Below are positions 4,163 through 40,769 of a DNA stretch of 41,235 bases, piece after piece. The stretch comes from an uncultured Dictyoglomota bacterium (GTDB taxonomy: Bacteria; Dictyoglomota; Dictyoglomia; Dictyoglomales; Dictyoglomaceae), in assembly GCA_964654465.1 (NCBI GenBank), contig CAZZIO010000049.1, positions 1-41,235 of the forward strand, written 5' to 3'. The stretch's first letter is position 1. The number at the start of each line of letters is the position of its first letter. The position numbers and the translations under genes were made by a program. Under the pieces are notes generated by a model. It made no database searches, had not been told where the DNA came from, and saw only the letters and a list, made by a program, of their open reading frames with translations.

Positions 4163-5554
4163 ATGGAAAAGTATGATGTAATTTTTTTAGGCGGAGGCTC
4201 TGGAGGTTATGTAGGAGCAATTAGAGCAGCAGATTTAGGAAAGAAAGTATGTGTGATAGAAGAAAGAGATTTAGGGGGAACTTGCTTAAATAGAGGTTGT
4301 ATACCTACAAAAGCTCTTTTAAAGAGTGCAGAGATTTATAACAGTATTAAAGAAGGACATATACTTGGAATAAAGGTTGATTCTTTTGGATATGATGTGA
4401 ATGGAATATATGATTGGAAAGAAAATGTAGTTAAGAAATTAGTAACAGGTATAGAATACCTATTCAAGTCAAGAAAAATTACTTTGAAAAAAGGAAAGGG
4501 GAAAATTCTTGATAATACCACAGTAGAAGTAGAAACAAAGGAAGGAAAAGAATTAATTAAAGGAGATAATATTGTTATTGCTACAGGATCAGAGCCTGCT
4601 ATAATTCCATCTTTTAAGATTGATGGTGTAAATGTACTCACATCCGATGATGCTTTAAGATTAAGAGAAATCCCTAAGGATATACTCATTGTAGGGGCAG
4701 GAGCTATCGGTATAGAGTTTGCAAACTTTTATAATGCTTTTGGTTCCAAAGTAACTATTGTGGAAATGATGCCTCAAGTAGTACCTACTTTGAAGGATAA
4801 GAAGATTGCTGCTCTTCTACAAAGAATTTTAAGTAAAAAGGGAATTGAGATTAAGACAGGGGCAAAAATAGAGAATATAGAGGTTAAGGATAGTAAAGTA
4901 TATTCTACTTTATCCACAGGAGAAACTATAGAAAGTGAGAAAGTGCTTGTCTCTATTGGAAGAAAATTAAATTCGGATAATATAGGTCTTGAAAATGTAG
5001 GAATAAATACTGAAAAAGGTAGAATAGTAGTTAACGAATATCTAAGAACAAATGTGGATAATATATATGCTATTGGAGATGTGATAGGTGGTCTTTTACT
5101 TGCTCATAAGGCCATGAAAGAAGGAGAAGTAGTTGCTGAGATTATTGCAGGGGAAGAAAAGAAAATGGATTATAGAGTACTACCATGGGCTATATTCTCT
5201 AATCCAGAAATTGCAGTTTGTGGTTTAACTGAGGAAGAAGCAAAGGAACAAGGTATGGAAGTGCTAATAGGAGAATTTCCATTTACTGCTAATGGTAAGG
5301 CTGTTACCATGAATGCTACTGATGGACTTGTAAAGGTGGTTGCAAGAAAAGAGGATAAGGTACTTATAGGAGCTCAAATAGTGGGTCCAGAAGCCTCTGT
5401 AATGATAGCAGAACTTGCTCTTGCTATTAAGAACAATCTTACTCTTGATGATGTGGCAGATACCATACATACCCATCCTACTCTTCCAGAGGCTATTATG
5501 GAGGCAGTAAAGGTACCTTTAGGAAGTGTAGTACATATTGCTTTAAGAAGATAG
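4163..5554 (+). CDS. lpdA: Dihydrolipoamide dehydrogenase (E3)
   Basis: GGGSGG FAD motif, GGTCLNRGCIPTK redox disulfide, GAGAIG NAD motif, HPTLPE catalytic dyad. Confidence 0.93.
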   Translation: MEKYDVIFLGGGSGGYVGAIRAADLGKKVCVIEERDLGGTCLNRGCIPTKALLKSAEIYNSIKEGHILGIKVDSFGYDVNGIYDWKENVVKKLVTGIEYLFKSRKITLKKGKGKILDNTTVEVETKEGKELIKGDNIVIATGSEPAIIPSFKIDGVNVLTSDDALRLREIPKDILIVGAGAIGIEFANFYNAFGSKVTIVEMMPQVVPTLKDKKIAALLQRILSKKGIEIKTGAKIENIEVKDSKVYSTLSTGETIESEKVLVSIGRKLNSDNIGLENVGINTEKGRIVVNEYLRTNVDNIYAIGDVIGGLLLAHKAMKEGEVVAEIIAGEEKKMDYRVLPWAIFSNPEIAVCGLTEEEAKEQGMEVLIGEFPFTANGKAVTMNATDGLVKVVARKEDKVLIGAQIVGPEASVMIAELALAIKNNLTLDDVADTIHTHPTLPEAIMEAVKVPLGSVVHIALRR

Positions 5555-11736: not shown

Positions 11737-12510
11737 TTATTCTTCGGGATGTACAGTTATAACTTCTATTCCTTCTTTTTTAAGCTCTTCTATATAATGG
11801 GGTGGAACATTATCATCAATGATAATTTTATGCATAACATTTGTGGGTGCTACGAATGAGAAACATTCCTTTCCAAATTTACTATGATCTGCTACTCCTA
11901 TAATTTCTCTTCCCATCTCTATGATTAATTTTTTAATTTGGGATTCAGCTATACTTGCTGTATACATACCTTTTGAAGGTATAATTCCAGATATACCTAA
12001 AAATACCTTATCAACTCTAAATTCTCTTAAAACCCTTTCTGCCAATGGTCCAATGAGAGCAATAGTCTCTTTTCTAAGAACACCGCCTGTTAGTATTACT
12101 TCTACGCCTCTTGCGTTCAGAAGTTCTCTTGCTACTTCTATTGAATTGGTAAGCACTGTAAGATCATGTTTATTTTTTATATTTTTTGCTATTTGTAATG
12201 TAGTACTTCCTGCTTCAATAAATATGGATTCACCATCGTTTATGATCTCTGCAGCCTTTTTCCCAATTGCCATTTTTTCTTTAAGGTTTTGTCTTTTTTT
12301 AGTAGTAAAAAGAGGTTCAAAGGAAAAACTATGAGGTAGTATTGCTCCACCATGTGTTCTCTTAAGAAAACCCTCTTTTTCTAAGGCTTCAAGGTCTCTT
12401 CTTATTGTAGCTCCTGTTACATTAAATAATTTAACTAAGTCGTTAACTTTGATACTTCTTTCTTTTTCTAAAAGCTCAAGTATTTTGGATCTTCTTTCAT
12501 CAGGAAGCAT
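11737..12510 (-). CDS. DeoR/GlpR-family transcriptional regulator (candidate rhamnose/fucose repressor)
   Basis: HTH VTGATIRRDL..LE, RTHGGA, GSTT, TNS and DHSKFG sugar-phosphate sensor motifs. Confidence 0.92.
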   Translation of the reverse strand: MLPDERRSKILELLEKERSIKVNDLVKLFNVTGATIRRDLEALEKEGFLKRTHGGAILPHSFSFEPLFTTKKRQNLKEKMAIGKKAAEIINDGESIFIEAGSTTLQIAKNIKNKHDLTVLTNSIEVARELLNARGVEVILTGGVLRKETIALIGPLAERVLREFRVDKVFLGISGIIPSKGMYTASIAESQIKKLIIEMGREIIGVADHSKFGKECFSFVAPTNVMHKIIIDDNVPPHYIEELKKEGIEVITVHPEE

Positions 12511-13916: not shown

Positions 13917-15737
13917 ATGAGTAGATTATTTCCTATTAGAGTTGGTGAAAAAAGGTTTATAGAGGATTACCCTAAGGTAGGAATTCGTCCAACTATAGAT
14001 GGAAGATATGGGGGTGTAAGAGAGACTTTAGAAGATCAAACTATGAATCTTGCAAAGGCAGTTGCAGAGTTTATTGAAAATAATGTTTATCTTCTCAATG
14101 GAGAAAAAGTTAAATGTGTAATCCCAGAAAGATGTATTGGAGGAGTTGCAGAAGCAAGAATGGCAGATGAGCTCTTTAGAAAAGAAGGAGTGGGAGTATC
14201 TATAACTGTTACTCCTTGTTGGTGTTATGGAGCGGAAACAATGGATATGAGTCTTGATATTCCAAAGGCTGTTTGGGGATTTAATGGTACAGAAAGACCA
14301 GGAGCAGTTTATCTTGCAGCAGTTTCAGCTGCTCACAATCAAAAAGGGCTTCCAGTATTTAAGATTTATGGAAAAGACGTTCAAGATAGAGATGATTACA
14401 CTATCCCCTCTGACGTAAAAGAAAAGATAATTAAGTTTGTAAAGAGTGCTTTAGCAGTAGCTATTATGAAAAACAAGTCTTATCTTTCTATAGGTAGTGT
14501 CTCTATGGGAATTGCAGGATCTATTGTTGATCCTGACTTCTTTGAGGATTATTTAGGGATGAGGGTTGAGTATGTTGATATGACAGAAATAATTCGTAGG
14601 ATTGAAAGAAAGATTTATGATGAAGAAGAATTCAACAGAGCAATGGAGTGGGTTAAAAAATATTTGAAAGAGGGGGAAGATCCTAATCCACCTGAAAAAA
14701 GGGTTGATGAGAAGAAAAAGCAGGAAGTATGGGAATTTGTAGTGAAGATGACGTTAATAATCAGAGATTTAATGGTTGGAAATAAAAAGTTAGAAGAACT
14801 TGGTTATCCTGAAGAAAGTTTAGGACATAATGCTATTGTAGCGGGATTTCAAGGGCAAAGACAATGGACAGATCATTTTCCAAATGGTGATTTTCCAGAG
14901 GCTATTTTAAATTCATCTTTTGATTGGAATGGATTAAGACAACCTTATATATTGGCAACAGAGAATGATAGTCTCAATGGAGTATGTATGTTATTTGGTC
15001 ATCTTCTAACTAACACTGCTCAGATTTTTGCTGATGTTAGAACTTATTGGAGCCCTGAAGCAATATATAGGGTTACAGGATGGAAGCCTGAAGGTTTAGC
15101 CCAAAATGGAGTAATTCATTTAATAAATTCTGGACCTGCTGCTCTTGACGGTACAGGAGAACAAGAAATAGATGGAAAACCAGCTATAAAGCCATTCTGG
15201 GAGATAACTGATGAGGAAGTTTTGAAATGTATTAATGTCACTAAATTCTGTTATGCTAACCTTGGATATTTTAGGGGTGGTGGTTTTTCTACGGACTTTA
15301 CTACAAGAGGAGGCATGCCAGTAACTATAAGTAGATTAAATATAGTTAAGGGGCTTGGCCCTGTTTTACAGATTGCAGAGGGTTACACAGTGGAACTTCC
15401 TCCCCATGTTCATGATATTCTGGATAGAAGAACAGATCCAACTTGGCCAACTACATGGTTTGTGCCTAAGCTTACTGGAAAGGGTGCCTTTAAAAGTGTT
15501 TACTCAGTAATGGAAAATTGGGGGGCAAATCACTGTGCTATTACTTATGGGCATGTGGGTGATCTTTTCATAACCCTTGCTTCCATTTTAAGGATTCCTG
15601 TTTGTATGCATAATGTGGAGGAAGATAGAATATTTAGACCAAGTGCTTGGTCTATGTTTGGTACTCAAGATTTAGAAGGAGCTGATTTCAGAGCCTGTTT
15701 AAACTTTGGACCACTCTATAAAAAAGTAAGAGGATAA
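13917..15737 (+). CDS. fucI: L-fucose isomerase
   Basis: [54 protein letters not shown]. Confidence 0.95.
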
Positions 15738-24774: not shown

Positions 24775-24790
24775 AAGGGGTGTTTAATAA

Positions 24791-25165
24791 ATGGAGAGAG
24801 AACTTGGTGCTAAGATTTGGCTTATACCAGATGCATATTTACCGGGTGTGGGTGATGTTAATTTACCAAGTCATGAGTCTACATGTATTTTAAATGTAAA
24901 TGATAAACCTGCTACTGTTAAATTCACCTTCTATTTTGAAGATAGAGATCCAATAGAGTCAAAGGAGATAGTTGTGCCTGCAAAGAGAACATGGCATGTA
25001 AGATTGGATAGATCAGAAGAAATTCTTGGGGTGAAGCTAGAAAGAGATGTACCTTTTGCAATTAAAGTGGAGAGTAATGTAAAAATTGTAGTGCAACATT
25101 CAAGATTAGACACAAGACAACCCAATCTTGCCTATATGACTGCTATTCCTTGGAATATCGATTAA
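24791..25165 (+). CDS. Anabaena sensory rhodopsin transducer (ASRT)-family beta-sandwich protein
   Basis: G.K.W.IPD.Y.P, SHES.CILN, FYFEDR.P, V.AKRT.HVRL, S.V.IVVQHSRLD motifs. Confidence 0.8.
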   Translation: MERELGAKIWLIPDAYLPGVGDVNLPSHESTCILNVNDKPATVKFTFYFEDRDPIESKEIVVPAKRTWHVRLDRSEEILGVKLERDVPFAIKVESNVKIVVQHSRLDTRQPNLAYMTAIPWNID

Positions 25166-25191
25166 TTAATATTTCTTTAATGTTTTTATGC

Positions 25192-25219
25192 TTGACATTT
25201 AAGGGGGTAATGTTAATAT
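25192..25219 (+). promoter_or_regulatory. Internal promoter for the E1/lipoyl/E2/SorE/SrlD operon
   Basis: TTGACA-16nt-TAATAT with TGn extension, followed by an A-rich tract. Confidence 0.6.
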
Positions 25220-25286
25220 AAAAGAAAAAGAAATGAAAATAAAAAATAAAAATAAATAAAAGAAAAATAAAAAGGAGGTGCTAAAG

Positions 25287-27662
25287 TTGCCAAAAGAGAT
25301 AAAAGTATTCCCAGAGTTTGAACCAGGATATATTGAGGTTGGTGGGAAAGTCCCAAAGTTTCAATATAATAAATCCCTTAAGGATGAATTAAAAGAGGGA
25401 ACAATAACAAGGGAAGAAAGCATTGATCTTTTTAAATGTATGCTTATGATTAGAAACTTTGAAGAGATGATATATGAATTGAGGGCAAATAAGGGTAAGT
25501 ATGGGAATATACGCTATTTATATATAGGAGCCACTCATCTATCTATAGGACAGGAAGCAGTACCTACGGGTGGAATATCAGTTATTAAGAAGGATGATTA
25601 TATAACAAGTACTCATAGAGGACATGGGGATGCAATAGCTAAAAGTTACTTTGGATTAAAAGATATGTCAGAAGAGGAGCTTTTTTCTTTTATAGAAAGT
25701 AACAAAGAGATTGCCAATTTTTTAGGTTATGCCTGGAAGAACAAAAATAAAAATATTTTATATCAATACGCTCTTGATATAGAACTCTTTAAGGCTATAG
25801 GAGAACTATTTGGAAAGGAATGGGGGGCATGTAAGGGAAGAGGAGGATCCATGCATATTGCGGACTTCAGTGTAGGTCATTTAGGGGCGAATGCCATAGT
25901 TGGAGGTAGTATGGGAATTGCAGTAGGATCTGCTATGGCGTCAAGATATATGGAGGATGGAAAAGTAACCCTATGTTTTATTGGAGATGGGGCTATGAAT
26001 ACGGGTATAGCTCATGAGGCATTGAATATGGCTTGTATGGCTCAATTCACTAATGGATTGATGGAGAAAAAGTTTGGTGTACCAGTCATATTTATGGTTA
26101 TGAATAACCAATATGGAGAATCAGGTCAACAAAAGGGAGAGGTCACGGGAATAGATTATATTGCAGAAAGAGGATTTGCTTATAACAAAAAGGGAATGCA
26201 TGCTGAAGTTGTAAATGCTATGAATGTGCTTGCTGTAAGAGATGCGGTAAAAAGAGCAGTGGAAAAGGCAAGAAATGGTGATGGACCTATTTTGCTTGAG
26301 TTTTGGGGATATAGATTTGTGGGACATTCTTTAAGTGATACATTGGAAAAACCAGAAGATGGTACATATCGTACATATGATGAGCTTCAAGAATGGAAAA
26401 AATATGATCCTATAGAAAATTTTGCAAAGGAATTGATAAGGGCTGAGGTACTTACAGAAGAAGAAGTAGAAAATCTCAAGAGAGAGGCTCGCAAAAAGAA
26501 TGAAGAAATAGCAGGAAAGGTAATAGAATCTCCCAATCCTGATCCTAAACAAATGACTCTATATGTATTTAATGATGCTCCTATTGATGATTATGTGCCT
26601 GAAAAGTTTGGAAACGTTACTGTGTTAAAAGAACCAGCCTTTAAAGATAGGGATCCAGAGATAGAGATAAATTATAAAGAGGCTATAATTGAAGCCTTGT
26701 ATCAAGAAATGAAGAGAGATGCAAGGATACTCATGTGGGGAGAGGATATTGCGGATTATGGTGGTTCTTTTGGAGAAACAAAAGGTTTATTGGAAATATT
26801 TGGGAGAGATAGGATATTTAACACTGCTATATCAGAAGCTGCAATAGTAGGAACAGGAATTGGTGCTGCTATGAGAGGATTGAGACCTATTGTTGAGATC
26901 ATGTATATTGATTTTATTTTAATTGCTTTAGATCAAGTGGCAAACCAAGCTGCTAAGATGCGTTATATGACTGGTGGTCAAGCAGAAATACCTCTTACTA
27001 TAATAACTACTATTGGTGGTGGTAAAGGATATGCTGGACAACACTCTCAAAGTATTGAGTCCATATTAACCCATTTTCCAGGATTGAAAATTGTTGCTCC
27101 ATCAGATGCTTATGATGCAAAGGGGCTTTTAATATCAGCTATAAGGGATAAAAATCCTGTGATTTATATAGAGCATCAAAATCTTCTTCAAGATCCATTA
27201 CTTCTATCTCTTTCGAAAAGAAAAGTACCGAAAGAAGAATATATCATTCCATTAGGGAAGGCAGATATTAAAAGAAAAGCTAAGAATTACGATAAAAGTG
27301 TAACGGTAGTTTCATGGTCAGCCATGTTATATGCGGTTTTAAAGGCATCAGAAGAGTTAGAAAAGGAAGGAATTGAATTGGAGGTTATAGATTTAAGAAG
27401 TCTCTATCCTTTGGATATGGATACTATAATAGATTCGGTAAAAAGGACAAGAAGATTTGCGATTGTAACTCAAGCAGTAGAGTTTATGTCATTATCAGCT
27501 GAAATAATTACTCAACTTTTTGAAAAAGCAAATTCATATTTGGAGAGACCACCATTGAGGATAGGGGCTCCTTATTGTCCCCCCCCAGCCTCTCCAGTTC
27601 TTGAAAAAGCTTACCTTCCCAATGATAAGAGAATAATAGATGAGATTAAACAGTTATTTTAG
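25287..27662 (+). CDS. Fused ThDP-dependent dehydrogenase E1 alpha+beta (acetoin/2-oxoacid dehydrogenase family)
   Basis: Alpha half: HLSIGQEA, STHRGHG, GRGGSMH, GDG..NN ThDP motif, YRF.GHS. Beta half: GED, ISEAAIVG, EIMY.DF, QHSQ, DLRSL.PLD. SD GGAGGTG favours TTG at 25287 over GTG at 25278. Confidence 0.9.
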   Translation: MPKEIKVFPEFEPGYIEVGGKVPKFQYNKSLKDELKEGTITREESIDLFKCMLMIRNFEEMIYELRANKGKYGNIRYLYIGATHLSIGQEAVPTGGISVIKKDDYITSTHRGHGDAIAKSYFGLKDMSEEELFSFIESNKEIANFLGYAWKNKNKNILYQYALDIELFKAIGELFGKEWGACKGRGGSMHIADFSVGHLGANAIVGGSMGIAVGSAMASRYMEDGKVTLCFIGDGAMNTGIAHEALNMACMAQFTNGLMEKKFGVPVIFMVMNNQYGESGQQKGEVTGIDYIAERGFAYNKKGMHAEVVNAMNVLAVRDAVKRAVEKARNGDGPILLEFWGYRFVGHSLSDTLEKPEDGTYRTYDELQEWKKYDPIENFAKELIRAEVLTEEEVENLKREARKKNEEIAGKVIESPNPDPKQMTLYVFNDAPIDDYVPEKFGNVTVLKEPAFKDRDPEIEINYKEAIIEALYQEMKRDARILMWGEDIADYGGSFGETKGLLEIFGRDRIFNTAISEAAIVGTGIGAAMRGLRPIVEIMYIDFILIALDQVANQAAKMRYMTGGQAEIPLTIITTIGGGKGYAGQHSQSIESILTHFPGLKIVAPSDAYDAKGLLISAIRDKNPVIYIEHQNLLQDPLLLSLSKRKVPKEEYIIPLGKADIKRKAKNYDKSVTVVSWSAMLYAVLKASEELEKEGIELEVIDLRSLYPLDMDTIIDSVKRTRRFAIVTQAVEFMSLSAEIITQLFEKANSYLERPPLRIGAPYCPPPASPVLEKAYLPNDKRIIDEIKQLF

Positions 27663-27680
27663 AAAGGAGGAAGGATAAGG

Positions 27681-27941
27681 ATGGTGAAGAACATTGTTAT
27701 GCCAAAGGTTAGTGATGTAATGGAAAATGGAACTGTCACTACTTGGCTTAAGAAAGAAGGAGAAAAAATACAGAAAGGAGAACCATTATTAGAGATAGAG
27801 GTGGAAAAGGCAATAATGGAGATAGAGAGTGAATATGATGGTTATTTAAGAAAAATATTAGTAAAAGAAGGAGAGACAGTTCCTGTAGGTACTGTTCTTG
27901 CTTATGTTACTGATACCTTAGATGAGGAAATTCCAGAGTAA
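27681..27941 (+). CDS. Stand-alone lipoyl domain protein
   Basis: MPKVSDVMENGTV..WLKKEGE.I..GEPLLEIEVEKAIMEIES lipoyl-Lys turn; own SD and stop. Confidence 0.9.
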   Translation: MVKNIVMPKVSDVMENGTVTTWLKKEGEKIQKGEPLLEIEVEKAIMEIESEYDGYLRKILVKEGETVPVGTVLAYVTDTLDEEIPE

Positions 27942-27954
27942 GGGGGCATAAATT

Positions 27955-28650
27955 TTGAGTGGAGATAATGAGATTAAAAAGATACTTTTGGGTACTACAA
28001 GAAGGACTATAGCTGAGAGACTTTTGAAGAGTAAGCAAAATATACCTCATTTTTATGCTGAGTTAGAGACGGATGCTACAAACTTAGTGAATGTGAGAGA
28101 AGAGTTTATAAATAAAAATAATGTAAAAATATCTTATGATGATTTTATTATCAAGGCTGTAGCATCCTCTATAAAGGATTTCCCTTTAATAAATTCTCGT
28201 TTTAAGGAAACAGAAATAGAACTTTTAGAGGAGATAAATGTTGGTTTTGCGGTCGCTTTAGGGGATGAAGGTGTAGTGGTGCCTGTAATTAAAAATGCTG
28301 ATAAGAAAAATATTCTTCAGATATATGAAGAAAGGATTTTATTGATAGAGAAGGCAAGAAATAGAAAACTGAGAGTTGAAGATATATCTAATAGAAGTAT
28401 AACAGTAAATAATGTAGGAGTTTTTGGAATAAAGTCCATATTAGCTATAATTAATCCACCTGAAGTTGCTATAGTTACTTTTGGGGCTATTCAAGATAGA
28501 GTGGTTCCTGTAAATGGTGAGATAATGATTAGGAAAATGATGGATATTACACTTTCAGCAGACCATAGAGTAATAGATGGGGCTTATGGTGCTAAATTTC
28601 TTGTAAAGATAAAAGAATTTCTTGAGAATCCTAATCTGTTATTAACTTAG
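27955..28650 (+). CDS. Dihydrolipoamide acyltransferase (E2) catalytic domain only
   Basis: R..IAERL..SKQ.IPHFY, IINPPEVAI, DHRVIDGA (HxxxDG); TTG start with SD AGGGGG; no lipoyl or E3-binding domain. Confidence 0.9.
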   Translation: MSGDNEIKKILLGTTRRTIAERLLKSKQNIPHFYAELETDATNLVNVREEFINKNNVKISYDDFIIKAVASSIKDFPLINSRFKETEIELLEEINVGFAVALGDEGVVVPVIKNADKKNILQIYEERILLIEKARNRKLRVEDISNRSITVNNVGVFGIKSILAIINPPEVAIVTFGAIQDRVVPVNGEIMIRKMMDITLSADHRVIDGAYGAKFLVKIKEFLENPNLLLT

Positions 28651-28663
28651 GAGGATAATAAAA

Positions 28664-29935
28664 ATGGAAACCATAGCTTTAAGAATGTATGGAAAGATGG
28701 GTCTTAGGCTTGAAAAATTTGGGCTTCCCGATATTAAAGAAGATGAAATACTTGCAGAGATAATTTCAGATACCAGCTGTCCATCTACTTATAAAGAGAT
28801 AGTGCAGGGGTCAGAGCATCCGAGAGTACCAAAGGATATTGATAAAAACCCTGTTATTGTGGGACATGAAATGGCAGGTATTATTTTAAAAATTGGAGAA
28901 AAATGGAAAGATAAATATAAAGAAGGACAAAAGTTTACTATTCAACCTGCCCTTTTATATGAAAAAGGTCCTGTAGGTGTATTAAGTGCTCCTGGTTATT
29001 CATACAAATATTTAGGGGGGCTTGCTACAAGGGTCATTATTCCTAATGAAGTGATGGAACAAGATTGTCTTTTAATATATGAAGGAGATGCTTTCTATAA
29101 GGCATCCTTAGTGGAACCTCTGTCTTGTGTGGTTGGTGCTGTTAATGCTCAATATCATACAAAGGAAAATTCATATGAGCATATAATGGGTATAAAGCCT
29201 GGAGGTAAAACTGCGATTTTAGGTGGAGCAGGTCCTATGGGTCTTGCTTTTCTTGCTTATCTTATTTATGGTCCTCAAAATCCTGGATTGTTAATTATTA
29301 CTGATATTGATGATTCTAAGCTTCAAAGGGCTGTTAGAGCTTTTCCTGTAGATAAGATTAAAGAAAAGGGCATAGATATTAGATTTATTAATCCTACAAA
29401 AGATCAATCATATAAAGAAGTGAAATATGATGATATCTTTGTATTATATCCCAGTCCTAAATTAGTTGAGGAAGCAGACTCTCTACTTGACAGAGATGGA
29501 TGTCTAAACTTTTTTGCAGGACCAACAGACCATAATTTTACCGCATGTGTTAATTTCTATAAGGTTCATTATGATAAGCATCATTTTGTGGCTACATCTG
29601 GGGGAAATGCTAATGATATGAAGATAGCTTTAGATCTTATTCAGAAAGGCATTATAGATCCTTCTCCTATGATTACACATGTTGGGGGTTTGAATGTGGC
29701 AAGGGATGTGCTTTTAAATTTTCCCAATATTCCTGGAGGAAAGAAATTAATCTACACCCACATAAAGTTTCCTTTGTCAGATATTGATGATTTTGAAAGA
29801 TTAAGCATTGAAGGTCCTACCGAATTAAGAGATATTTATAGAGATCTATATCAAATTGTTAAAGAGAATAATGGATGGTGGTGTAAAGAAGCAGAAGATT
29901 ATATATTGAAAAAGGGGGAGAAAATAGATGTGTGA
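28664..29935 (+). CDS. L-sorbose-1-phosphate reductase (SorE)-like Zn-dependent MDR
   Basis: ALRMYGK..LRLE, GHE, IPNEVMEQDCLL.YEG, SLVEPLSCV.GA, GG.GPMGL, PGGKKLIY closely follow enterobacterial SorE as I recall it. Confidence 0.85.
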   Translation: METIALRMYGKMGLRLEKFGLPDIKEDEILAEIISDTSCPSTYKEIVQGSEHPRVPKDIDKNPVIVGHEMAGIILKIGEKWKDKYKEGQKFTIQPALLYEKGPVGVLSAPGYSYKYLGGLATRVIIPNEVMEQDCLLIYEGDAFYKASLVEPLSCVVGAVNAQYHTKENSYEHIMGIKPGGKTAILGGAGPMGLAFLAYLIYGPQNPGLLIITDIDDSKLQRAVRAFPVDKIKEKGIDIRFINPTKDQSYKEVKYDDIFVLYPSPKLVEEADSLLDRDGCLNFFAGPTDHNFTACVNFYKVHYDKHHFVATSGGNANDMKIALDLIQKGIIDPSPMITHVGGLNVARDVLLNFPNIPGGKKLIYTHIKFPLSDIDDFERLSIEGPTELRDIYRDLYQIVKENNGWWCKEAEDYILKKGEKIDV

Positions 29936-30725
29936 TTGCCAAAGATTAAAAGATAGAGTAGCAATTGTTACTGGAGCAGCTCAAGGGCTTGGTGAGGCTC
30001 TTGCTTATAGGCTTGCTAAGGAAGGTTGTGATGTTACTGTTGCTGACATAAAAATAGATAAGGCTCAAGAAGTGGTAAGAAGAATTGAAGAGGAATATAA
30101 AAGAAGGGCATTAGCTATAAAATGTGATGTAACTAATGAGGAAGATGTGAAAAATATGGTAGAAAAGACGGTTGAGGTTTTTGGAAAACTTGATATAATG
30201 GTTGCTAATGCTGGAATATTGATAGCTCATGATATTACTGAATTTCCTCTTGAGGATTGGAAAAAGGTTATTGATGTAAATTTGACAGGCTATTTTCTCT
30301 GTGCGAGAGAGGCGGCAAAGGTTATGGTGAGACAAAGATCAGGTGTCATAATACAGATTAATTCAAAATCAGGTAAAAAAGGGAGTTTTAGGAATTCTGC
30401 TTATTCTGCATCTAAATTTGGAGGAATAGGTTTTACTCAGAGTATTGCATTAGATTTGGCTCCATATAATGTAAGAGTGATAGCTGTTTGTCCTGGAGAT
30501 CTTCTGGATTCACCTTTGTGGAAAGAAAGTCTATATGATCAATATGCAAAGAGATTAGGGATAAGCAAAGAAGAGGTAAGAGAAAGGTATTTAAAACAGG
30601 TTCCCCTTGGAAGAGCATGTACTTATGATGATGTGGCAAATGTGGTAGTATTTCTTGCCAGTGATGAGGCATCCTATATTACTGGAGATGCTGTTAATGT
30701 TAGTGGTGGGGTAGAGATGAGGTGA
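29928..30725 (+). CDS. srlD: Sorbitol-6-phosphate 2-dehydrogenase (SrlD)-like SDR
   Basis: VNLTGYFLCARE, IIQINSKSGKKGS..NSAYSASKFGG.G.TQS.ALDLA, QYA..LGI, VPL.R.C.Y.DV. Confidence 0.85.
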   Translation: MCDCQRLKDRVAIVTGAAQGLGEALAYRLAKEGCDVTVADIKIDKAQEVVRRIEEEYKRRALAIKCDVTNEEDVKNMVEKTVEVFGKLDIMVANAGILIAHDITEFPLEDWKKVIDVNLTGYFLCAREAAKVMVRQRSGVIIQINSKSGKKGSFRNSAYSASKFGGIGFTQSIALDLAPYNVRVIAVCPGDLLDSPLWKESLYDQYAKRLGISKEEVRERYLKQVPLGRACTYDDVANVVVFLASDEASYITGDAVNVSGGVEMR

Positions 30726-30729
30726 AGAA

Positions 30730-31719
30730 ATGAGAGTACATATAGATATTGGTGTTAATGGAGCCTTTTTAACAAGAAGGTGGGAAGAACCTGAAAATTT
30801 TATAAGGCTTACAAAAGAACTTGGGTATGATTACCATTCTTTCTGTAGTGATGTTTTAGATCCCTTCTTTAGTGGCGATAAGGAATATCAAATAGAGACA
30901 GCAAAGAAAATAAAGGAGTATTCAGAAAAATATGATGTAGATATATGGGACTACTATACAGGGATGGCAACCCATAGGTTCCATGGTTTGTCTCATAGTG
31001 ATGAAAGAGTTAGAAAGAAAATGAAAGAATGGATCATATCTGCCATGGATATTGTAAGGGAGATGGGGGCAAAATATCTTGGAGGACATTGGGATGCTAT
31101 TTCTGTAGAAGTATTGCAAGATAATAGCAAAAAAAGAGAAAGAATTAATTACGTTTATAATACTTTTAAGGAACTTGCTAAGATTGCTAAAGATAAGGGG
31201 CTTTTAGGCATTTCTAATGAACAGATGTATATACCAAGTGAAAAACCATGGACATTAAAAGAGGCTGAAGAATTTCTTATTGAAGTAAATAAAGATAATG
31301 AAGGGGTTCCTGTTTACTTAACTATTGATGTGGGCCATCAGGCTGGTATGCATTACGGACTTACAGGAGACGATCTTTCCTACGAAGAATGGTTAAGAAG
31401 ATTTGCTTGTTTTTCTCCCATTATTCATTTACAACAGACAAAGCCAGATTCAAGTAGTCATTGGCCATTTACAGAAGAATATAATTCTATTGGACATGTC
31501 AAAATTGAGAAGGTGCTTTCTGCAATAAAGTCGTCTTTTGAAAATTATAAAGAAAATCCTGTATCTAAATATTTAAACCCAGTAGATAAAATAGTACTTA
31601 TAGTTGAAGTTATTCCACCTTCCACAAAAACTGAGGAAAAGGTATTAGAAGAGCTTAAAAAGACCTCTGATTATCTACGAAATTATATTCCTAAGGGAGG
31701 AATTTATTATGAATTCTGA
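30730..31719 (+). CDS. Xylose-isomerase-like TIM-barrel sugar-phosphate epimerase (EryC-like)
   Basis: G.N..F.T.RW.EP, metal ligands E.MY, DVGH, HLQQ, HWPFT..N..G and C-terminal E; resembles the EryC ketose-1-phosphate 3-epimerase group. Confidence 0.65.
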   Translation: MRVHIDIGVNGAFLTRRWEEPENFIRLTKELGYDYHSFCSDVLDPFFSGDKEYQIETAKKIKEYSEKYDVDIWDYYTGMATHRFHGLSHSDERVRKKMKEWIISAMDIVREMGAKYLGGHWDAISVEVLQDNSKKRERINYVYNTFKELAKIAKDKGLLGISNEQMYIPSEKPWTLKEAEEFLIEVNKDNEGVPVYLTIDVGHQAGMHYGLTGDDLSYEEWLRRFACFSPIIHLQQTKPDSSSHWPFTEEYNSIGHVKIEKVLSAIKSSFENYKENPVSKYLNPVDKIVLIVEVIPPSTKTEEKVLEELKKTSDYLRNYIPKGGIYYEF

Positions 31720-32377
31720 TGTGGCAAAACTTAAAAAAGAACTTATAGAGATAGGAAAAAGAATTTCTATGGAAAGCTTAGTTGTTGGGCCTGGAGGAAA
31801 TATAAGTGCAAGGCTTGGAGATAGAATATATATAAAAGCAAGTGGATCTTCCTTTGAAGATGCTATAGAAGAGGACTATATAGGAGTAGAAATAGATTCT
31901 GGAAATGTTGTAGACGGTGATAAAAGGCCTTCCTCAGAAATTTGGATGCATCTTGAGTGCTATAAGCAAAGGGAAGATGTAATGGCAGTGATTCATACCC
32001 ATCCTGTATATGCTATTGCATATGCTTTTCAAGATGAATCTCTAAAACCTTTTACTCCTGATATGGTTGCTCTCCTTGGAGGAGAGATTCCAGTAATTGA
32101 GTATGTAGTTCCTGGAGGTAAAGAGTTTGCTGAGGCAGTAGGTGAGATTATAAAAAATCATAATGGGGTTTTAGTAAAGAATCATGGTCTTGTTACAGTT
32201 GGAAGTAATTTAAAAGAGGCGTTATATAGAACTTTACTTATTGAATCTTCAATTAAAGTAATTTTTGTAGCAAAACTTTTTGGAAAGATGCGCTTCTTTA
32301 CAAAAGAACAAATAGATGAAATTGATAATTTAGAAGTTGAAAAATATAGAAAAAAATTATTAAAGGATAAATTTTAA
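31709..32377 (+). CDS. Class II aldolase/epimerase (FucA-like)
   Basis: GGNIS, PSSE..MH, HTH and NHG Zn ligands. Confidence 0.88.
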   Translation: MNSDVAKLKKELIEIGKRISMESLVVGPGGNISARLGDRIYIKASGSSFEDAIEEDYIGVEIDSGNVVDGDKRPSSEIWMHLECYKQREDVMAVIHTHPVYAIAYAFQDESLKPFTPDMVALLGGEIPVIEYVVPGGKEFAEAVGEIIKNHNGVLVKNHGLVTVGSNLKEALYRTLLIESSIKVIFVAKLFGKMRFFTKEQIDEIDNLEVEKYRKKLLKDKF

Positions 32378-32378
32378 A

Positions 32379-33104
32379 CTATTTCCAAGGAATATTATCT
32401 CTTCGTCTTACTTGGATTTCGTCAATAACTGCATTATTTCTAAATCTTAATAGAAATACAATAATTTCTGCAATTTCATAGGGTTGTATGAGGAATGATT
32501 TTTTAAGATCAGGTCTAACTTTGTTAACAAGATCAGTGGCAACTCCCCCTGGAGATATTAAATGTACCCTTATATCATATTCATGCACTTCTTGAGCAAG
32601 GACTTTTGTGAATCCGTGAAGTGCATGTTTAGATGCAGTATAGGCACTTTGATTTACATATCCTTTGTAGCCTACTACTGAAGATATATTTATAATAGTT
32701 GGAATTTCTGAGTTTTTCAAATAAGGTATGGCATATTTACATAAAAAATAAGGAACCTTTGCATTAATTGTCATTAAATTATCCCATTCTTCCTCTGACG
32801 TTTCTAATAAAGGTTTGGAAAGAGCTGTTCCAGCATTATTTATTAATATATCTAATCCCCCAAAATATTTAGTTACTTTATCAATAACAAACTTTGGAGC
32901 ATTATTCTCTGTCAAATCTATTGGCAAAATAAATACATCAATATTTTCTTTTGATAATTCATCTTTTATTTTTTTTAATTTATTTTCATCTCTTGCTATA
33001 AGAGCAAGATTAACCTTTTCCTTTGCAAGCCTTCTTGCAATTTCTTCTCCAATCCCTCTACTTGCTCCTGTTATTAATGCTATCTTTTTAGCAAGGTTAA
33101 CCAT
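32379..33104 (-). CDS. SDR family oxidoreductase
   Basis: TGASRGIG, NNAG, SS and YTASK catalytic motif. Confidence 0.9.
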   Translation of the reverse strand: MVNLAKKIALITGASRGIGEEIARRLAKEKVNLALIARDENKLKKIKDELSKENIDVFILPIDLTENNAPKFVIDKVTKYFGGLDILINNAGTALSKPLLETSEEEWDNLMTINAKVPYFLCKYAIPYLKNSEIPTIINISSVVGYKGYVNQSAYTASKHALHGFTKVLAQEVHEYDIRVHLISPGGVATDLVNKVRPDLKKSFLIQPYEIAEIIVFLLRFRNNAVIDEIQVRRRDNIPWK

Positions 33105-33143
33105 GGCTTTATTATATCATGACATTGATAATGAAAAAAAATC

Positions 33144-33172
33144 TTGACAGAAATGAAAAATAAAAATAGAAT
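33144..33172 (+). promoter_or_regulatory. Promoter of the CUT1 ABC/GH4 operon
   Basis: TTGACA-17nt-TAGAAT. Confidence 0.72.
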
Positions 33173-33273
33173 ATAGACGTAAAAATATACAAAATCTTTG
33201 CATAATATTAAAGGGGGGTGATCTGTAAATTTAAAAAATCTCTCCTAAATAATATTAAAAGGGGGTTAGATTT

Positions 33274-34542
33274 ATGAAGTTTAAAGGGGTTTTAGTTTTT
33301 TTGTTACTTCTTCTCATCGTTTTGACAGTTAATTATTCTCAACAGCCTATAAATTTAAGGGTTGCTTGGTGGGGAAGCCAAACCAGACATAATCAGACTC
33401 TTGAAGTAATCAAGCTGTTTGAAAAAAGATATCCCAATATTAAAATAACGCCAGAATATACATCATGGAGTGATTACTGGACGAAACTTAATACACAGGC
33501 TGCAGCTGGAAACTTACCTGATGTAATACAACATGATTATCAATATATTACTGAATGGGTAAATAGAGGATTACTTTTACCTCTTGATGATTTTGTTAAG
33601 GATAATGTAATAAATCTAAAAGATGTGGCTACTAATTATATAAAGCCTGGAATAGTAAATAGTAGACTTTATGGTATAAATCTTGGTGTTAATGCTCTTG
33701 GTCTTGTTTATGATCCTGAATTATTCAAACAAGCTGGTTTTCCTCTTCCAAAAAATGATTGGACTTGGGAGGAATTTAAAAATACAGTTATACAAATAAA
33801 GAAAAAACTTTGTATTTATGGTGTTGAAGGCTTTACAGGTCAAATAGAATGCTTCAAAATTTGGTTAATTGAGAATGGAGAATGGTTATATTCTCAAGAT
33901 GGTAAGTCCATAGGTTTTAGTAAAGACACATTTGTAAAATGGTGGAAAATGATGCTTGATATAGAGAATGCGGGTGCTGCTCCAGATGTAACAGTGGATG
34001 TTTCAAGGACAGGTCTTGGAGTTGAAGATCAATTTATTGTTAAAAAGAAATCTGCCATGTCTCTTGCTTGGAGTAATCAGCTTATTGCTATATCAAAAGC
34101 TGCTGGCAGACCTTTAAAGATGGTTCTTTTCCCAAGGCTTGATAAAAAATCAAAATCTGGTACCTATCTTAAAGCTTCCATGTTTTTCTCTATTTATTCC
34201 AGGACAAGATATCCTAAAGAGGCAGCTATGTTTATTGATTTCTTTACTAACAATTTAGATGCTCATAAGATTATGAAAGCAGAAAGAGGAGTTCCTATTT
34301 CAAGTAGAGTACAAACTTTCTTAAAACCATATATTGAGGCTTCTCAGAAAGAGGCTTTTGCTTTTGTAAGACTTGCTGAAAAAGAAGGATCGCCTACACC
34401 TCCTCCTGATATTCCTAAACATGCAGAGATATCAAATAATGTTATAGCTCCTATATGGGAGCAAATTAGATACAAGAAGATTGGATTAGAGGAGGCCTAT
34501 GATACTCTTAAGAAAGAAGCAGAGAAAATATTGAATAGGTAA
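33274..34542 (+). CDS. Oligosaccharide ABC substrate-binding protein (CUT1; YesO/TogB-like)
   Basis: Signal peptide, WWGS..R, W.DYWTKL.TQAA.GNLPDV.Q, ERGVP. Confidence 0.85.
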   Translation: MKFKGVLVFLLLLLIVLTVNYSQQPINLRVAWWGSQTRHNQTLEVIKLFEKRYPNIKITPEYTSWSDYWTKLNTQAAAGNLPDVIQHDYQYITEWVNRGLLLPLDDFVKDNVINLKDVATNYIKPGIVNSRLYGINLGVNALGLVYDPELFKQAGFPLPKNDWTWEEFKNTVIQIKKKLCIYGVEGFTGQIECFKIWLIENGEWLYSQDGKSIGFSKDTFVKWWKMMLDIENAGAAPDVTVDVSRTGLGVEDQFIVKKKSAMSLAWSNQLIAISKAAGRPLKMVLFPRLDKKSKSGTYLKASMFFSIYSRTRYPKEAAMFIDFFTNNLDAHKIMKAERGVPISSRVQTFLKPYIEASQKEAFAFVRLAEKEGSPTPPPDIPKHAEISNNVIAPIWEQIRYKKIGLEEAYDTLKKEAEKILNR

Positions 34543-38086: not shown

Positions 38087-39280
38087 ATGATAAATTATGA
38101 AAAAAGGTATGAGATTTTAAGGAATATGTTAGAAGATGAAGGTATAGATGTAGAGGGGGTTGAGAGGAAGTTAAAGAATTTTAGGGTCGAAACTCCTTCT
38201 TGGGGTTATGCTGATTCTGGAACCCGATTTGCTGTATTTAAGCAAAAAGGATCTGCAAGAAATGTAAAGGAAAAGTTGCAAGATGCTGCTATGGTGCATA
38301 AATTAACTGGAATATGTCCTACAGTTGCTCTTCATATACCATGGGATATGTATGATGATTGGGATGAACTATTAAAATATGCTGAATCTCTTGGAGTTAA
38401 ACCAGGTGCAATTAATCCAAATCTATTTCAAGATGATGAGTATAAGTTAGGAAGTTTAACTCATGTTGATAAAAAAGTAAGGGAGAAGGCTATAAATCAT
38501 ATTAAAGAATGCATAGAAATAGCTAAAAGACTTGGATCTAAAGATATTTCCCTTTGGCTTGCTGATGGTACTAATCATCCTGGGCAAGATGACTTTAGAA
38601 AGAGAAAACATAGATTAGAAGAAAGCTTAAGAGAAGTATATTCTTATTTGGATTCCGATATGAGGCTTCTTATAGAGTATAAGTTTTTTGAACCTGCTTT
38701 TTATCATACGGATATTCCTGACTGGGGAACAGCAATGATTCTTTCAAGAAAGCTTGGAGATAGGGCTTATGTACTTGTAGACTTAGGACATCATCCTCTC
38801 GGGACAAATATAGAGCAGATTGTTGCTATTCTTGTAGATGAAGGAAAACTTGGGGGATTCCATTTTAACAATAAAAAGTATGCAGATGATGATCTTACTA
38901 CTGGCTCTATAAATCCTTATGAATTATTTTTGATATTTAATGAACTGGTTTCTGCGGAAGAAGATGGTTTAAAGATGAATATTGCATATATGATAGATGA
39001 ATCTCACAACCTTAAGAACAAAATAGAAGAGATGATACAAAGTGTTGAAAATATATTTAAAACTTATGCAAAAGCTTTAATTGTAAACAGAAAATTGTTA
39101 AGAAAATATCAAGAGGAATGTGATATTGTCATGGCAGAAAATACCTTGGTAAAAGCCTTTGATACTGATGTTATGCCATTAATTTATAAAGTAAGAGAAG
39201 AAATGGGAGTTCCTCTTGATCCATTGAAGACTTTTCGAGAAAGTGGTTATATGGAAAAGGTTGTTAAAGAGAGAGTATGA
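38087..39280 (+). CDS. rhaI: L-rhamnose isomerase (RhaI type)
   Basis: [58 protein letters not shown]...YADDDL. Confidence 0.92.
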
Positions 39281-39290
39281 GGTGATAAAT

Positions 39291-40769
39291 ATGAAAGAGA
39301 GAAGGTTTATTGCTATTGATCTTGGGGCAGAAAGCGGAAGAATTATGTTGGGAACCTTGAAGGATAATAGAATAACTCTTGAAGAGATTCATAGGTTTGT
39401 AAATAGGCCTGTTGATATTCTTGGGAGACTTTACTGGAATGTTACACAGATGTTTCAAGATATTAAAGAGGGTTTGAGTAAGGCTTTTTCTAAATATAAA
39501 GATATAGAAAGTATAGGGATAGATACATGGGGTGTAGATTTTGGATTGGTTACGAAGGAAGGTTATTTAGCAGGGATTCCTGTATGCTATAGGGATCATA
39601 GGACAGATGGGATTCTTGAAAAGGCTTTTAGAGTAATGTCTAAAGAAGAAATTTATAAATTGACAGGAATACAAATAATGCAAATTAATACCTTATTTCA
39701 ACTCTATAGTATGGTGCATGAAAAATCTTCTCTCTTTAATTCTGCTCATAAACTGTTATTTATGCCTGATCTATTTAATTTTATGTTGACGGGAGAGATG
39801 ATAACTGAGTTCTCTATTGCAACTACTTCTCAGATGTATAATCCTTTTAAAGATGATTGGGAAGAAGAAATCTTGAATAAATTTAATATTCCTAAGTACA
39901 TAATGCCCACTATAGTTCCTTCTGGTACAGAGATAGGTAAGTTATACAGAGGGATTCAAGAAGAATTAAATGTTAAGGATGTTTCTGTAATTGCCCCTTG
40001 TGAACATGATACGGGATGTGCTGTAGTGGGAGTTCCTGGAAAAGGTGAAGATTGGGCATATATTAGTTCAGGAACATGGTCATTGATGGGGGTTGAACTT
40101 AAAGAACCTATTATAAATGAAGAATCTTTTAAGGCAAATTTTACTAATGAAGGTGGTTATGGTAAGACTTATAGATTTTTGAAAAACATAATGGGACTTT
40201 GGCTTTTACAGAGAGTAAAAAGAGAATGGGCTAAAGAAGGGTGTGACCTATCATATTCTGAGATTACTAAATTGGCTGAAGAGGAAGAACCCTTTAAATA
40301 TTTTATAAACCCTGATGATGTATCGTTTTTAAATCCACCGAGCATGGTAAAAGCAATTCAAGATTATTGCTATAAAACCCATCAAGGTATACCTGAGAAA
40401 AAAGGAGAAATAGCAAGATGTATATTGGAATCTCTTGCTTTTAGGTATAAAGAGGTCTTTGATGATCTTGAGAGAATTTTAAAGAAGAAGATCAAAGTTT
40501 TACATATTGTGGGAGGAGGCTCACAAAACCAATTACTTTCACAATTTACTGCTGATGTTCTTGGTATACAAGTTATTACTGGACCTGTTGAAGCAACTTC
40601 TTTAGGGAATATAGTAGTACAAGCTATAACAAAGGGAGCAATAAAAGATATAAAAAAAGCAAGAGAAATTATTGAATCCTCTTCTGATATGAAAACTTAT
40701 TATCCAAAGGATACTGAGAAATGGCAAAAAATGTATGAGAGATATAAGGAGATTACAAATATAATTTAA
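39291..40769 (+). CDS. rhaB: Rhamnulokinase (FGGY family; possibly also fuculokinase)
   Basis: AIDLGAESGR, IGIDTWGVDF, YRD.RT, HDT..AV, SSGTWSL.G.E, TNEGG, KNIMGLW; ATG at 39291 follows SD GAGGTG. Confidence 0.92.
   Translation: MKERRFIAIDLGAESGRIMLGTLKDNRITLEEIHRFVNRPVDILGRLYWNVTQMFQDIKEGLSKAFSKYKDIESIGIDTWGVDFGLVTKEGYLAGIPVCYRDHRTDGILEKAFRVMSKEEIYKLTGIQIMQINTLFQLYSMVHEKSSLFNSAHKLLFMPDLFNFMLTGEMITEFSIATTSQMYNPFKDDWEEEILNKFNIPKYIMPTIVPSGTEIGKLYRGIQEELNVKDVSVIAPCEHDTGCAVVGVPGKGEDWAYISSGTWSLMGVELKEPIINEESFKANFTNEGGYGKTYRFLKNIMGLWLLQRVKREWAKEGCDLSYSEITKLAEEEEPFKYFINPDDVSFLNPPSMVKAIQDYCYKTHQGIPEKKGEIARCILESLAFRYKEVFDDLERILKKKIKVLHIVGGGSQNQLLSQFTADVLGIQVITGPVEATSLGNIVVQAITKGAIKDIKKAREIIESSSDMKTYYPKDTEKWQKMYERYKEITNII

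Follow-up and report, generated by a model that had tools for sequence, protein, structure and literature searches.

The window analysed here is a 41,235-nucleotide (nt) stretch of DNA from an uncultured bacterium of the family Dictyoglomaceae, phylum Dictyoglomota (assembly GCA_964654465.1, contig CAZZIO010000049.1), and the present work concerns a gene within it for a class II aldolase-type enzyme, together with the operon which that gene closes. The conserved operon looks like an undescribed route from deoxysugars to acetyl-CoA, and it is a more novel object than the aldolase-type protein itself. The same-strand run of genes that ends in the aldolase gene is as follows (aa, amino acids).

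24791..25165, + strand: ASRT-family (Anabaena-sensory-rhodopsin-transducer-family) protein, 124 aa; PF07100, 143.7 bits; between a rhamnose-type ATP-binding cassette (ABC) transporter and E1
25278..27662, + strand: fused E1 alpha-beta thiamine-diphosphate enzyme, 794 aa; E1_dh, Transket_pyr and Transketolase_C domains
27681..27941, + strand: separate lipoyl-domain open reading frame (ORF), 86 aa, from the stop-to-stop ORF listing; its frame differs from that of the E2 core downstream
27955..28650, + strand: E2 acyltransferase catalytic domain, 231 aa; PF00198, 250.9 bits
28664..29935, + strand: atypical zinc-dependent alcohol dehydrogenase (Zn-ADH) of the medium-chain dehydrogenase/reductase (MDR) type, 423 aa; proposed ketose-1-phosphate C2 reductase (SorE-like), a weak assignment; ADH_N, 30.7 bits
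29928..30725, + strand: short-chain dehydrogenase/reductase (SDR) of sorbitol-6-phosphate-dehydrogenase (SrlD) grade, 265 aa; NF009050, 403.7 bits, cut-off 307
30730..31719, + strand: xylose-isomerase-like TIM barrel, 329 aa; proposed ketose-1-phosphate 3-epimerase; PF01261, 58 bits
31709..32377, + strand: class II (FucA-fold) aldolase-type enzyme, 222 aa; PF00596; last gene of the operon

The aldolase-type protein and its operon partners

The ORF at 31709-32377 gives an intact, stop-free translation of 222 aa, of which residues 11-184 match the class II aldolase/adducin N-terminal domain (PF00596) at 164.2 bits, against a cut-off of 22.2. Its motifs are P74-S75-S76-E77, H96-T97-H98 and N158-H159-G160. 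The zinc ligands H96, H98 and H159, the residue E77 and the phosphate pocket (G30-N31, S45-G46 and S75-S76) are invariant among the relatives, and they align with the residues of E. coli FucA, which is an aldolase for L-fuculose 1-phosphate, the E. coli FucA, AraD, RhaD and YgbL sequences used for comparison having been taken from NC_000913. Some of the E. coli residue numbers (the catalytic Glu73 of FucA and others) are named in PMC3870299 and PMC5434028. In the column of E77, FucA and RhaD likewise have Glu, whereas both E. coli AraD and the AraD of this genome have Asp. As read from its sequence, the protein is a zinc-dependent retro-aldol-type enzyme of the FucA fold, in which the predicted catalytic apparatus for retro-aldol chemistry on ketose 1-phosphates is intact; the tools supply the family and the catalytic residues, and the substrates are a deduction.

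None of the NCBIfam equivalog cut-offs was reached by the protein. The best match was to the AraD-type subfamily model PRK06557 (143.7 bits, cut-off 251); the FucA models gave 129.9 bits (PRK06833) and 98.2 bits (PRK08087), each against a cut-off of 264, and 88.3 bits (TIGR01086) against 400, while the OtnC model NF043034 gave 117.2 bits against 250 and the RhaD model NF002963 54.8 bits for the window protein (52.6 in the genome search) against 170. Among solved structures (phmmer against the PDB) the top matches were S. pneumoniae FucA (1e-28), B. thuringiensis DrdA, E. coli FucA (6e-20), YgbL and AraD (4.5e-12). An AlphaFold2 model with a predicted local distance difference test (pLDDT) score of 91.5 has its closest folds in FucA, with template-modelling (TM) scores of 0.84-0.90, against 0.79 for AraD. 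The likeness to FucA thus covers the fold, the three zinc-binding histidines, the catalytic Glu and the Gly-Asn/Ser-Gly/Ser-Ser phosphate pocket, yet the identity is 26-34%, the protein falls in a separate 35-row clade (see below) and its genomic partners are dehydrogenases and E1/E2, not FucO. In addition, the neighbouring-subunit tyrosine of the FucA aldehyde site, Tyr113', has no Tyr counterpart at any of the three candidate positions T116, P117 and D118; Tyr113 of FucA, or its S. pneumoniae equivalent, pairs with D118 in phmmer against the PDB, with P117 in MAFFT and the family hidden Markov model (HMM), and with T116 in the hhalign profile-profile alignment. Both D118 and Y213 are invariant in the clade, and their match to the AraD acid/base pair Asp120'/Tyr229' varies with the alignment register, in which three methods differ. 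An equivalence of D118 to AraD Asp120 is not claimed, four alignment methods having given three different registers. With AraD the protein shares the fold, its best NCBIfam match and, in the route proposed below, the retro-aldol/aldol mechanism for C4 inversion; it differs in missing the PRK06557 cut-off, in carrying Glu77 where AraD has Asp, in the lower TM score, and in coming from a genome that has an AraD of its own.

The end of the TIM-barrel gene overlaps the start of the aldolase gene by 11 nt. The nearest solved relative of the barrel is 4k3z (4.5e-17, residues 62-267), which we take to be Brucella EryC. According to PMC5992420, which cites Barbier 2014, EryC is a tetrulose-4-phosphate racemase. 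Chemistry of this type is epimerisation at the carbon beside a carbonyl which itself stands beside a CH2OP group, as in the C3 step proposed for the barrel. The SDR has SrlD 5o3z as its top PDB match (4.3e-68, the runner-up being at 5.7e-48), and in the Zn-ADH only the N-terminal ~95 residues match the ketose reductase 1e3j and sorbitol dehydrogenases.

The fused E1 scores below the pyruvate dehydrogenase (PDH) equivalog cut-offs, and its beta half resembles the Geobacillus PDH E1 beta (275 bits). About 165 N-terminal residues of this protein are without a match to any solved E1, and its alpha half is far more divergent than the beta half. The separation of the lipoyl ORF from the E2 core recurs in a complete genome of the same genus, G003 (split recorded at L110 15918-16896), which rules out an assembly error; two sister genera have the two parts fused in a single protein of 320-324 aa (Biotin_lipoyl plus 2-oxoacid_dh). 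The ASRT-family gene accompanies the module in G003, G004 and G006, and in the window (24791-25165, PF07100) it occupies the slot expected for a rhamnose mutarotase. A promoter and terminator scan of 24600-33400 is uninformative, its counts being equal to those of shuffled sequence.

Sugar genes of the window and the genome

The sugar-gene inventory was taken from the whole 1.91-Mb assembly (99.97% complete) by profile searches against curated cut-offs. The preliminary description of the window had listed fucI, rhaI, one FGGY kinase and one FucA-like protein (PSSE, HTH, NHG), a gene content which the profile scores and motifs bear out. The genes concerned, with those around them, are the following.

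4163..5554, + strand: dihydrolipoyl dehydrogenase (E3), candidate third component; TIGR01350, 555 bits, cut-off 409
11737..12510, - strand: DeoR-family regulator; in other genera its orthologs (78-84% identity) directly precede E1
12872-13894: LacI regulator beside fucI; Pfam domains
13917..15737, + strand: L-fucose isomerase, fucI; NF008220, 1102 bits
15789-19285: ABC transporter beside fucI; Pfam domains
38087..39280, + strand: L-rhamnose isomerase, RhaI type; TIGR02635, 676 bits, cut-off 531
39243..40769, + strand: rhamnulokinase RhaB (FGGY); TIGR02627, 538.4 bits, cut-off 528

The RhaB at 39243..40769 is the sole RhaB/FucK-type kinase of the genome and the only FGGY kinase of the window. 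Six FGGY kinases exceed the Pfam cut-off genome-wide (GlpK, XylB, AraB, RhaB and two unassigned), and none of the six reaches the cut-off of the FucK model. PF00596 is represented by two genes, of which the second, 35% identical to the target, is an AraD (PRK06557, 271.6 bits, cut-off 251) and belongs to the arabinan/arabinose cluster of contig C22, which leaves the target as the only non-AraD class II enzyme of the genome. The earlier statement that the window contains no RhaD-type aldolase holds for the whole genome as well: neither the window nor the 1.91-Mb assembly has a protein over the NF002963 cut-off, the sole match being the target ORF (52.6 against 170). With no RhaD, and with the other class II gene being an AraD, the target is the only candidate for the sugar phosphates derived from both rhamnose and fucose.

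The rest of the genome, which the preliminary description had left to be searched for rhaD, fucK and fucO, yielded none of these at cut-off grade. Genome-wide, no FucO-grade enzyme was found, the three full-length iron-dependent alcohol dehydrogenases (Fe-ADHs) reaching 155-226 bits where the models of lactaldehyde reductase require 523-537; nor does the genome hold an AldA-type aldehyde dehydrogenase (ALDH), the single weak ALDH-family ORF reaching 78 bits.

The E3 gene lies ~20 kb upstream of the operon. The DeoR gene (11737-12510, -) is here ~13 kb from E1, with LacI-fucI and two ABC transporters between them, whereas it adjoins E1 in L115, L116 and L118; its position suggests that the rhamnose locus is the older one and received the fucose genes as an inserted block. 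Between the two sugar ABC transporters lies a gene for a ureidoglycolate-lyase-family protein (PF04115; 19355-19861, -), a 76% identical copy of which adjoins rhaI/rhaB in another genus (L131, L137 near 13447).

Conservation of the module and relatives of the aldolase-type protein

Within the phylum the aldolase has an ortholog of at least 70% identity in nine of ten other genomes, the tenth genome being 72% complete. The gene order E1-E2-ZnADH-SrlD-TIM-aldolase is kept in all six further Dictyoglomota genomes whose flanks were inspected, which represent three genera. In two other genera the DeoR regulator stands directly upstream of the module, and the flanks carry rhaI, or a rhamnose-type ABC transporter with the ASRT-family gene, without fucI. 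One genus of the Dictyoglomaceae has an extra mannitol-1-phosphate-5-dehydrogenase-family (MtlD-family) gene between the Zn-ADH and the SrlD-like gene (L116 12878-14056, genome G006; 302 bits against a cut-off of 356), and gaps of equal size occur at this position in L115, L119, L130, L131 and L137.

The association of these genes extends beyond the Dictyoglomota. In L018, from an uncultured bacterium, the order is ZnADH-SrlD(71%)-TIM(41%)-aldolase(58%)-E1alpha-E1beta, the percentages being identities. L138 and L135 combine a rhamnulokinase-like FGGY protein, ZnADH, SrlD (69%), a PHP-like protein and the aldolase (57-59%), and in L138 the aldolase (57%) is followed by a GH106 rhamnosidase and then by a RhaI-like barrel. 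L185 reads ZnADH-SrlD-PHP-like-aldolase-E1a-E1b-E2-E3; L141 and L152 also add E1, E2 and E3, the former with a lipoate ligase and a radical-SAM gene besides. In several uncultured lineages the slot of the TIM barrel, from the SrlD-like gene to the aldolase, is taken by a PHP-like protein of 394-444 aa (L138 8798-9982, L185 6171-7505, L152 8760-9959), whose copies in L185 and L138 are 45% identical. In Pfam and among PDB sequences the PHP-like protein of the L138-type modules has no match, a BLAST comparison with the TIM barrel showed no similarity, and the Atlas yields only a PHP-domain lead. Glycolytic genes flank the module in two metagenomic versions (L152 10678-13282; L185 194-1483), namely those for glyceraldehyde-3-phosphate dehydrogenase with a ~95-aa N-terminal extension, phosphoglycerate kinase and enolase.

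The strength of the association was counted in metagenomic neighbourhoods, where 28 of 80 loci had at least 4 kb of flank on each side and module genes were scored within 10 kb of the aldolase. Module genes were present at all eight loci with an aldolase of at least 65% identity, at 4/9 of those with 50-65% and at 4/10 of those with 44-50%. When the SrlD-like gene served as the seed in 121 genomes of the phylum to which L018 belongs, four holders were found; three also carry the aldolase (57-60% identity), the remaining one being a fragmentary 0.8-Mb metagenome-assembled genome (MAG). A second FucA/RhaD-type gene was sought in one module-bearing MAG, where only an AraD-like gene was found, a result that gives no leverage.

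A different context prevails among genome-contig homologs of 38-44% identity. Flanks of 4 kb or more on each side were available at 12 loci, eight of which have fucI and a RhaB-like kinase adjoining (Paenibacillus, Cohnella, Bacillus), the usual order being LacI | fucI-aldolase-FGGY-small ORF. No lactaldehyde genes were seen beside the fucI-aldolase-kinase-small ORF run of Paenibacillaceae, which does not discriminate between cleavage and C4 inversion. Of genomes with such fucose-operon homologs, five out of five have a ~700-aa ORF bearing a PF00596 domain, and in three of five further genomes RhaEW exceeds its cut-off; the two genomes without RhaEW are also without fucI near the homolog. This co-occurrence, seen in most of the Paenibacillaceae genomes, leaves room for an epimerase feeding RhaEW, and is suggestive only.

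A 54-row tree (quick IQ-TREE, with long branches flagged) places the module-linked and the fucose-operon proteins in one strongly supported clade of 35 rows, within which a 13-row core module clade is nested. As sister group the tree has FucA-type proteins of clostridia that are fucI-linked, and the E. coli proteins FucA, YgbL and AraD fall outside. Eighteen module-linked proteins were compared with 11 from fucose operons. The residues specific to one group (positions 16, 49, 56, 57 and 219; five of the 50 positions conserved in both) were considered as a sign of a changed reaction and rejected, none being a known catalytic site.

A candidate deoxysugar route and its rivals

We infer all the substrates, and the order of every step, in the route that follows, whereas the tools show directly which family and catalytic residues the protein has, how the operon is made up and conserved, and that other aldolases are absent. 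The Fischer assignments were derived for this work, R (right) and L (left) giving the side of the hydroxyl with C1 on top. L-rhamnulose is 3R,4L,5L, L-fuculose 3R,4R,5L and L-sorbose 3L,4R,5L, so that L-rhamnulose 1-phosphate differs from 6-deoxy-L-sorbose 1-phosphate at C3 and C4 and inversion at both is needed. L-sorbose 1-phosphate is known to be converted via D-glucitol 6-phosphate to D-fructose 6-phosphate by a Zn-ADH reductase and an SrlD-type dehydrogenase. Since the FucA fold fixes C3 and can vary C4 by retro-aldol/aldol reaction, the aldolase-fold protein is the only operon member suited to the C4 step.

In the proposed route, this enzyme would bind 6-deoxy-L-ketohexose 1-phosphates in its FucA-type pocket for dihydroxyacetone phosphate (DHAP) and would break and re-make the C3-C4 bond. 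L-rhamnulose 1-phosphate would thus become L-fuculose 1-phosphate by C4 inversion through the DHAP enediolate and L-lactaldehyde, either enzyme-held or transiently released. The EryC-like TIM barrel would invert C3, converting L-fuculose 1-phosphate to 6-deoxy-L-sorbose 1-phosphate, which the Zn-ADH would reduce at C2 to 1-deoxy-D-glucitol 6-phosphate; oxidation at C5 by the SrlD-like SDR would then give 1-deoxy-D-fructose 6-phosphate, a methyl ketone of the acetoin type, and the lipoyl E1/E2/E3 system would split this product into acetyl-CoA and D-erythrose 4-phosphate. Fucose would join at L-fuculose 1-phosphate after the same kinase, one enzyme set serving both sugars. According to PMC3245297, L-fuculose is also accepted by E. 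coli RhaB, and RhaB can hardly be told apart from FucK; PMC5434028 describes latent 4-epimerase activity among class II aldolases.

Genomic context and stereochemistry tentatively favour a role in C4 inversion, by which the enzyme would feed a new deoxysugar route dependent on E1. The SrlD-grade SDR, the EryC-like barrel and, in one genus, the MtlD-family gene all point to sugar-phosphate chemistry in the neighbourhood, and the route model gives each gene a role, accounting both for the SrlD-grade SDR and for the retention of the aldolase in rhamnose-only contexts. The preliminary description had proposed a 4-epimerase feeding the SorE/SrlD/E1 route, an interpretation which is supported in part. 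The place in such a route is coherent with operon context and stereochemistry, whereas the protein itself bears no sequence mark of an epimerase, keeps the FucA-type Glu and folds most like FucA. A dedicated rhamnulose-1-phosphate/fuculose-1-phosphate 4-epimerase is a doubtful assignment; no natural enzyme of the class II aldolase fold would have been a ketose-1-phosphate 4-epimerase before it, and it would open a widespread, undescribed 6-deoxyhexose route to acetyl-CoA and erythrose 4-phosphate. Were it correct, the homologs in the fucose operons of Paenibacillaceae might be epimerases supplying RhaEW.

Several observations weigh against C4 inversion. E77 is the Glu by which FucA protonates the enediolate and releases DHAP, whereas the epimerase AraD has Asp; no epimerase mark was found in the aldolase sequence, and the best structural matches are to FucA. 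Where module-linked and fucose-operon proteins are each conserved, at 50 positions, the two groups agree at 45, the pocket and metal residues all being among these. At the level of these residues sequence does not separate an epimerase from a FucA-type aldolase, and the chemistry of the 35-row clade may simply be FucA-type cleavage. C4 inversion is also not required to reach erythrose 4-phosphate, because C4 ends as the aldehyde carbon; only dehydrogenases specific for glucitol would make it necessary. About half of the flank-sufficient clade members outside the Dictyoglomota are without a module gene within 10 kb, and several lineages replace the TIM barrel by the unrelated PHP-like protein. 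The E1 route as a whole is putative and unproven, and, according to the D. turgidum genome paper (PMC5167688), that organism grows on rhamnose and not on fucose.

Nearly as likely as the C4-inverting role, and itself a tentative reading, is that of an ordinary catabolic aldolase, which would cleave L-rhamnulose 1-phosphate, and perhaps L-fuculose 1-phosphate, to DHAP and L-lactaldehyde; a generic Fe-ADH would reduce the lactaldehyde, and the neighbouring genes would serve another substrate or a parallel branch. That the FucA-type Glu leaves such cleavage possible was noted at the outset, and E77 is indeed kept, as is the entire DHAP pocket. The closest solved structures and folds are those of FucA, eight of the 12 loci of relatives at ~39-43% identity are fucI-aldolase-kinase operons, the protein is the sole candidate aldolase in a genus reported to grow on rhamnose, and three Fe-ADHs are at hand in the genome. 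The D. turgidum paper (PMC5167688) states simply that cleavage yields DHAP and lactaldehyde, the gene not being named there. A plain aldolase would, however, use up the one plausible substrate that the co-transcribed sugar-phosphate enzymes have, though the association holds across phyla and when seeded from the SrlD-like gene. It would do so in a genome without a FucO-grade or AldA-grade lactaldehyde enzyme, and would leave the EryC-like, SrlD-like and E1/E2 roles without explanation. A reading of the neighbours as a path from lactaldehyde via lactate and pyruvate to PDH was rejected: the SDR is of SrlD grade and not RhaW-like (~190 bits on the RhaEW models), and the EryC-like and MtlD-family genes would be left idle.

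Two further explanations move the chemistry elsewhere. The enzyme might act on another intermediate with a DHAP-like end, either in decarboxylating a 3-oxo-acid 4-phosphate, as OtnC/YgbL do, or in a tetrulose-phosphate step after E1 cleavage, with the EryC-like barrel working on the same C4 compounds. The nearest solved relative of the barrel does act on a tetrulose phosphate, the OtnC model score (117 bits) is near those of the FucA models, and E. coli YgbL (94 bits on the family profile) has a common local motif at residues ~114-118 and is likewise paired with a TIM-barrel isomerase, YgbM. The OtnC cut-off is nevertheless missed (117 against 250), extra isomerases absent from the module would be needed, and the nearest context-defined relatives are fucose-operon enzymes; no DUF1537-type kinase was seen among the annotated ORFs of the window, no search aimed at DUF1537 having been made. 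Such a role is improbable. The least probable of the alternatives, and a very unlikely one, has the enzyme cleave its substrate and the glycolytic fructose-1,6-bisphosphate (FBP) aldolase rejoin DHAP and L-lactaldehyde with the opposite configuration at C3 and C4, the resulting 6-deoxy-L-sorbose 1-phosphate entering the reductase/dehydrogenase/E1 route. In synthetic chemistry FBP aldolase forms this compound from these two substrates; both centres would be inverted in one step and the FucA-type Glu would stay meaningful. The conserved EryC-like barrel would then be left without a role, free lactaldehyde would be needed at 70 °C or more, and no FBP aldolase gene is present in the module at any locus examined.

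Textbook catabolism of rhamnose and fucose ends in lactaldehyde, and anaerobes discard half of the sugar as 1,2-propanediol. If the proposed E1-dependent route is real, it would avoid lactaldehyde and 1,2-propanediol and deliver all six carbons as acetyl-CoA and erythrose 4-phosphate, such that anaerobic thermophiles and many uncultured bacteria would regain the lost half as acetyl-CoA and an intermediate of the pentose phosphate pathway. For this purpose a strictly fermentative organism would be using a lipoyl enzyme system. The aldolase-fold protein would be the merging point of both deoxysugars and a natural case of the 4-epimerase activity which engineers have sought from class II aldolases. 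Were it a plain aldolase instead, one enzyme must still serve both sugars in the phylum, and the source label of its homologs, 'L-fuculose-phosphate aldolase', is putative. A literature search returned no description of such an operon or route, of a rhamnulose-1-phosphate/fuculose-1-phosphate epimerase or of a Dictyoglomus aldolase; it covered articles without their supplements, such as Table S1 of PMC3870299, which may list Thermotogales assignments.

Among known systems, RhaD and RhaE share the presumed substrate, and the target is encoded near rhaI and rhaB as in the rha loci of Rodionova 2013 (PMC3870299), where canonical RhaD is assigned to Thermotogales and RhaEW is described. The differences are that T. 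maritima uses the canonical RhaD, which is absent here (the target scoring 54.8 bits against 170), and that RhaE carries Asp in place of the Glu and forms one protein with an SDR, whereas the target stands alone and keeps Glu. The SrlD-grade SDR and the barrel closest to 4k3z resemble, respectively, the L-sorbose-1-phosphate reductase/glucitol-6-phosphate dehydrogenase route and Brucella EryC, and the E1/E2 proteins are of the heterotetrameric lipoyl type of PDH and acetoin dehydrogenase. In contrast to those systems, a single operon with ties to genes for rhamnose and fucose unites all of them here, the Zn-ADH is atypical, the E1 alpha and beta parts are fused, and in this genus the E2 has no attached lipoyl domain.

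Directly beyond the aldolase lies a generic SDR gene (32379-33104, -), which is convergent with it, stop to stop. It is kept at the same spot in three other records of the closest relatives (G003, G004 and the metagenome contig L127), whereas in the other genera examined no copy was detected next to the aldolase; its product could act on a product of the operon.

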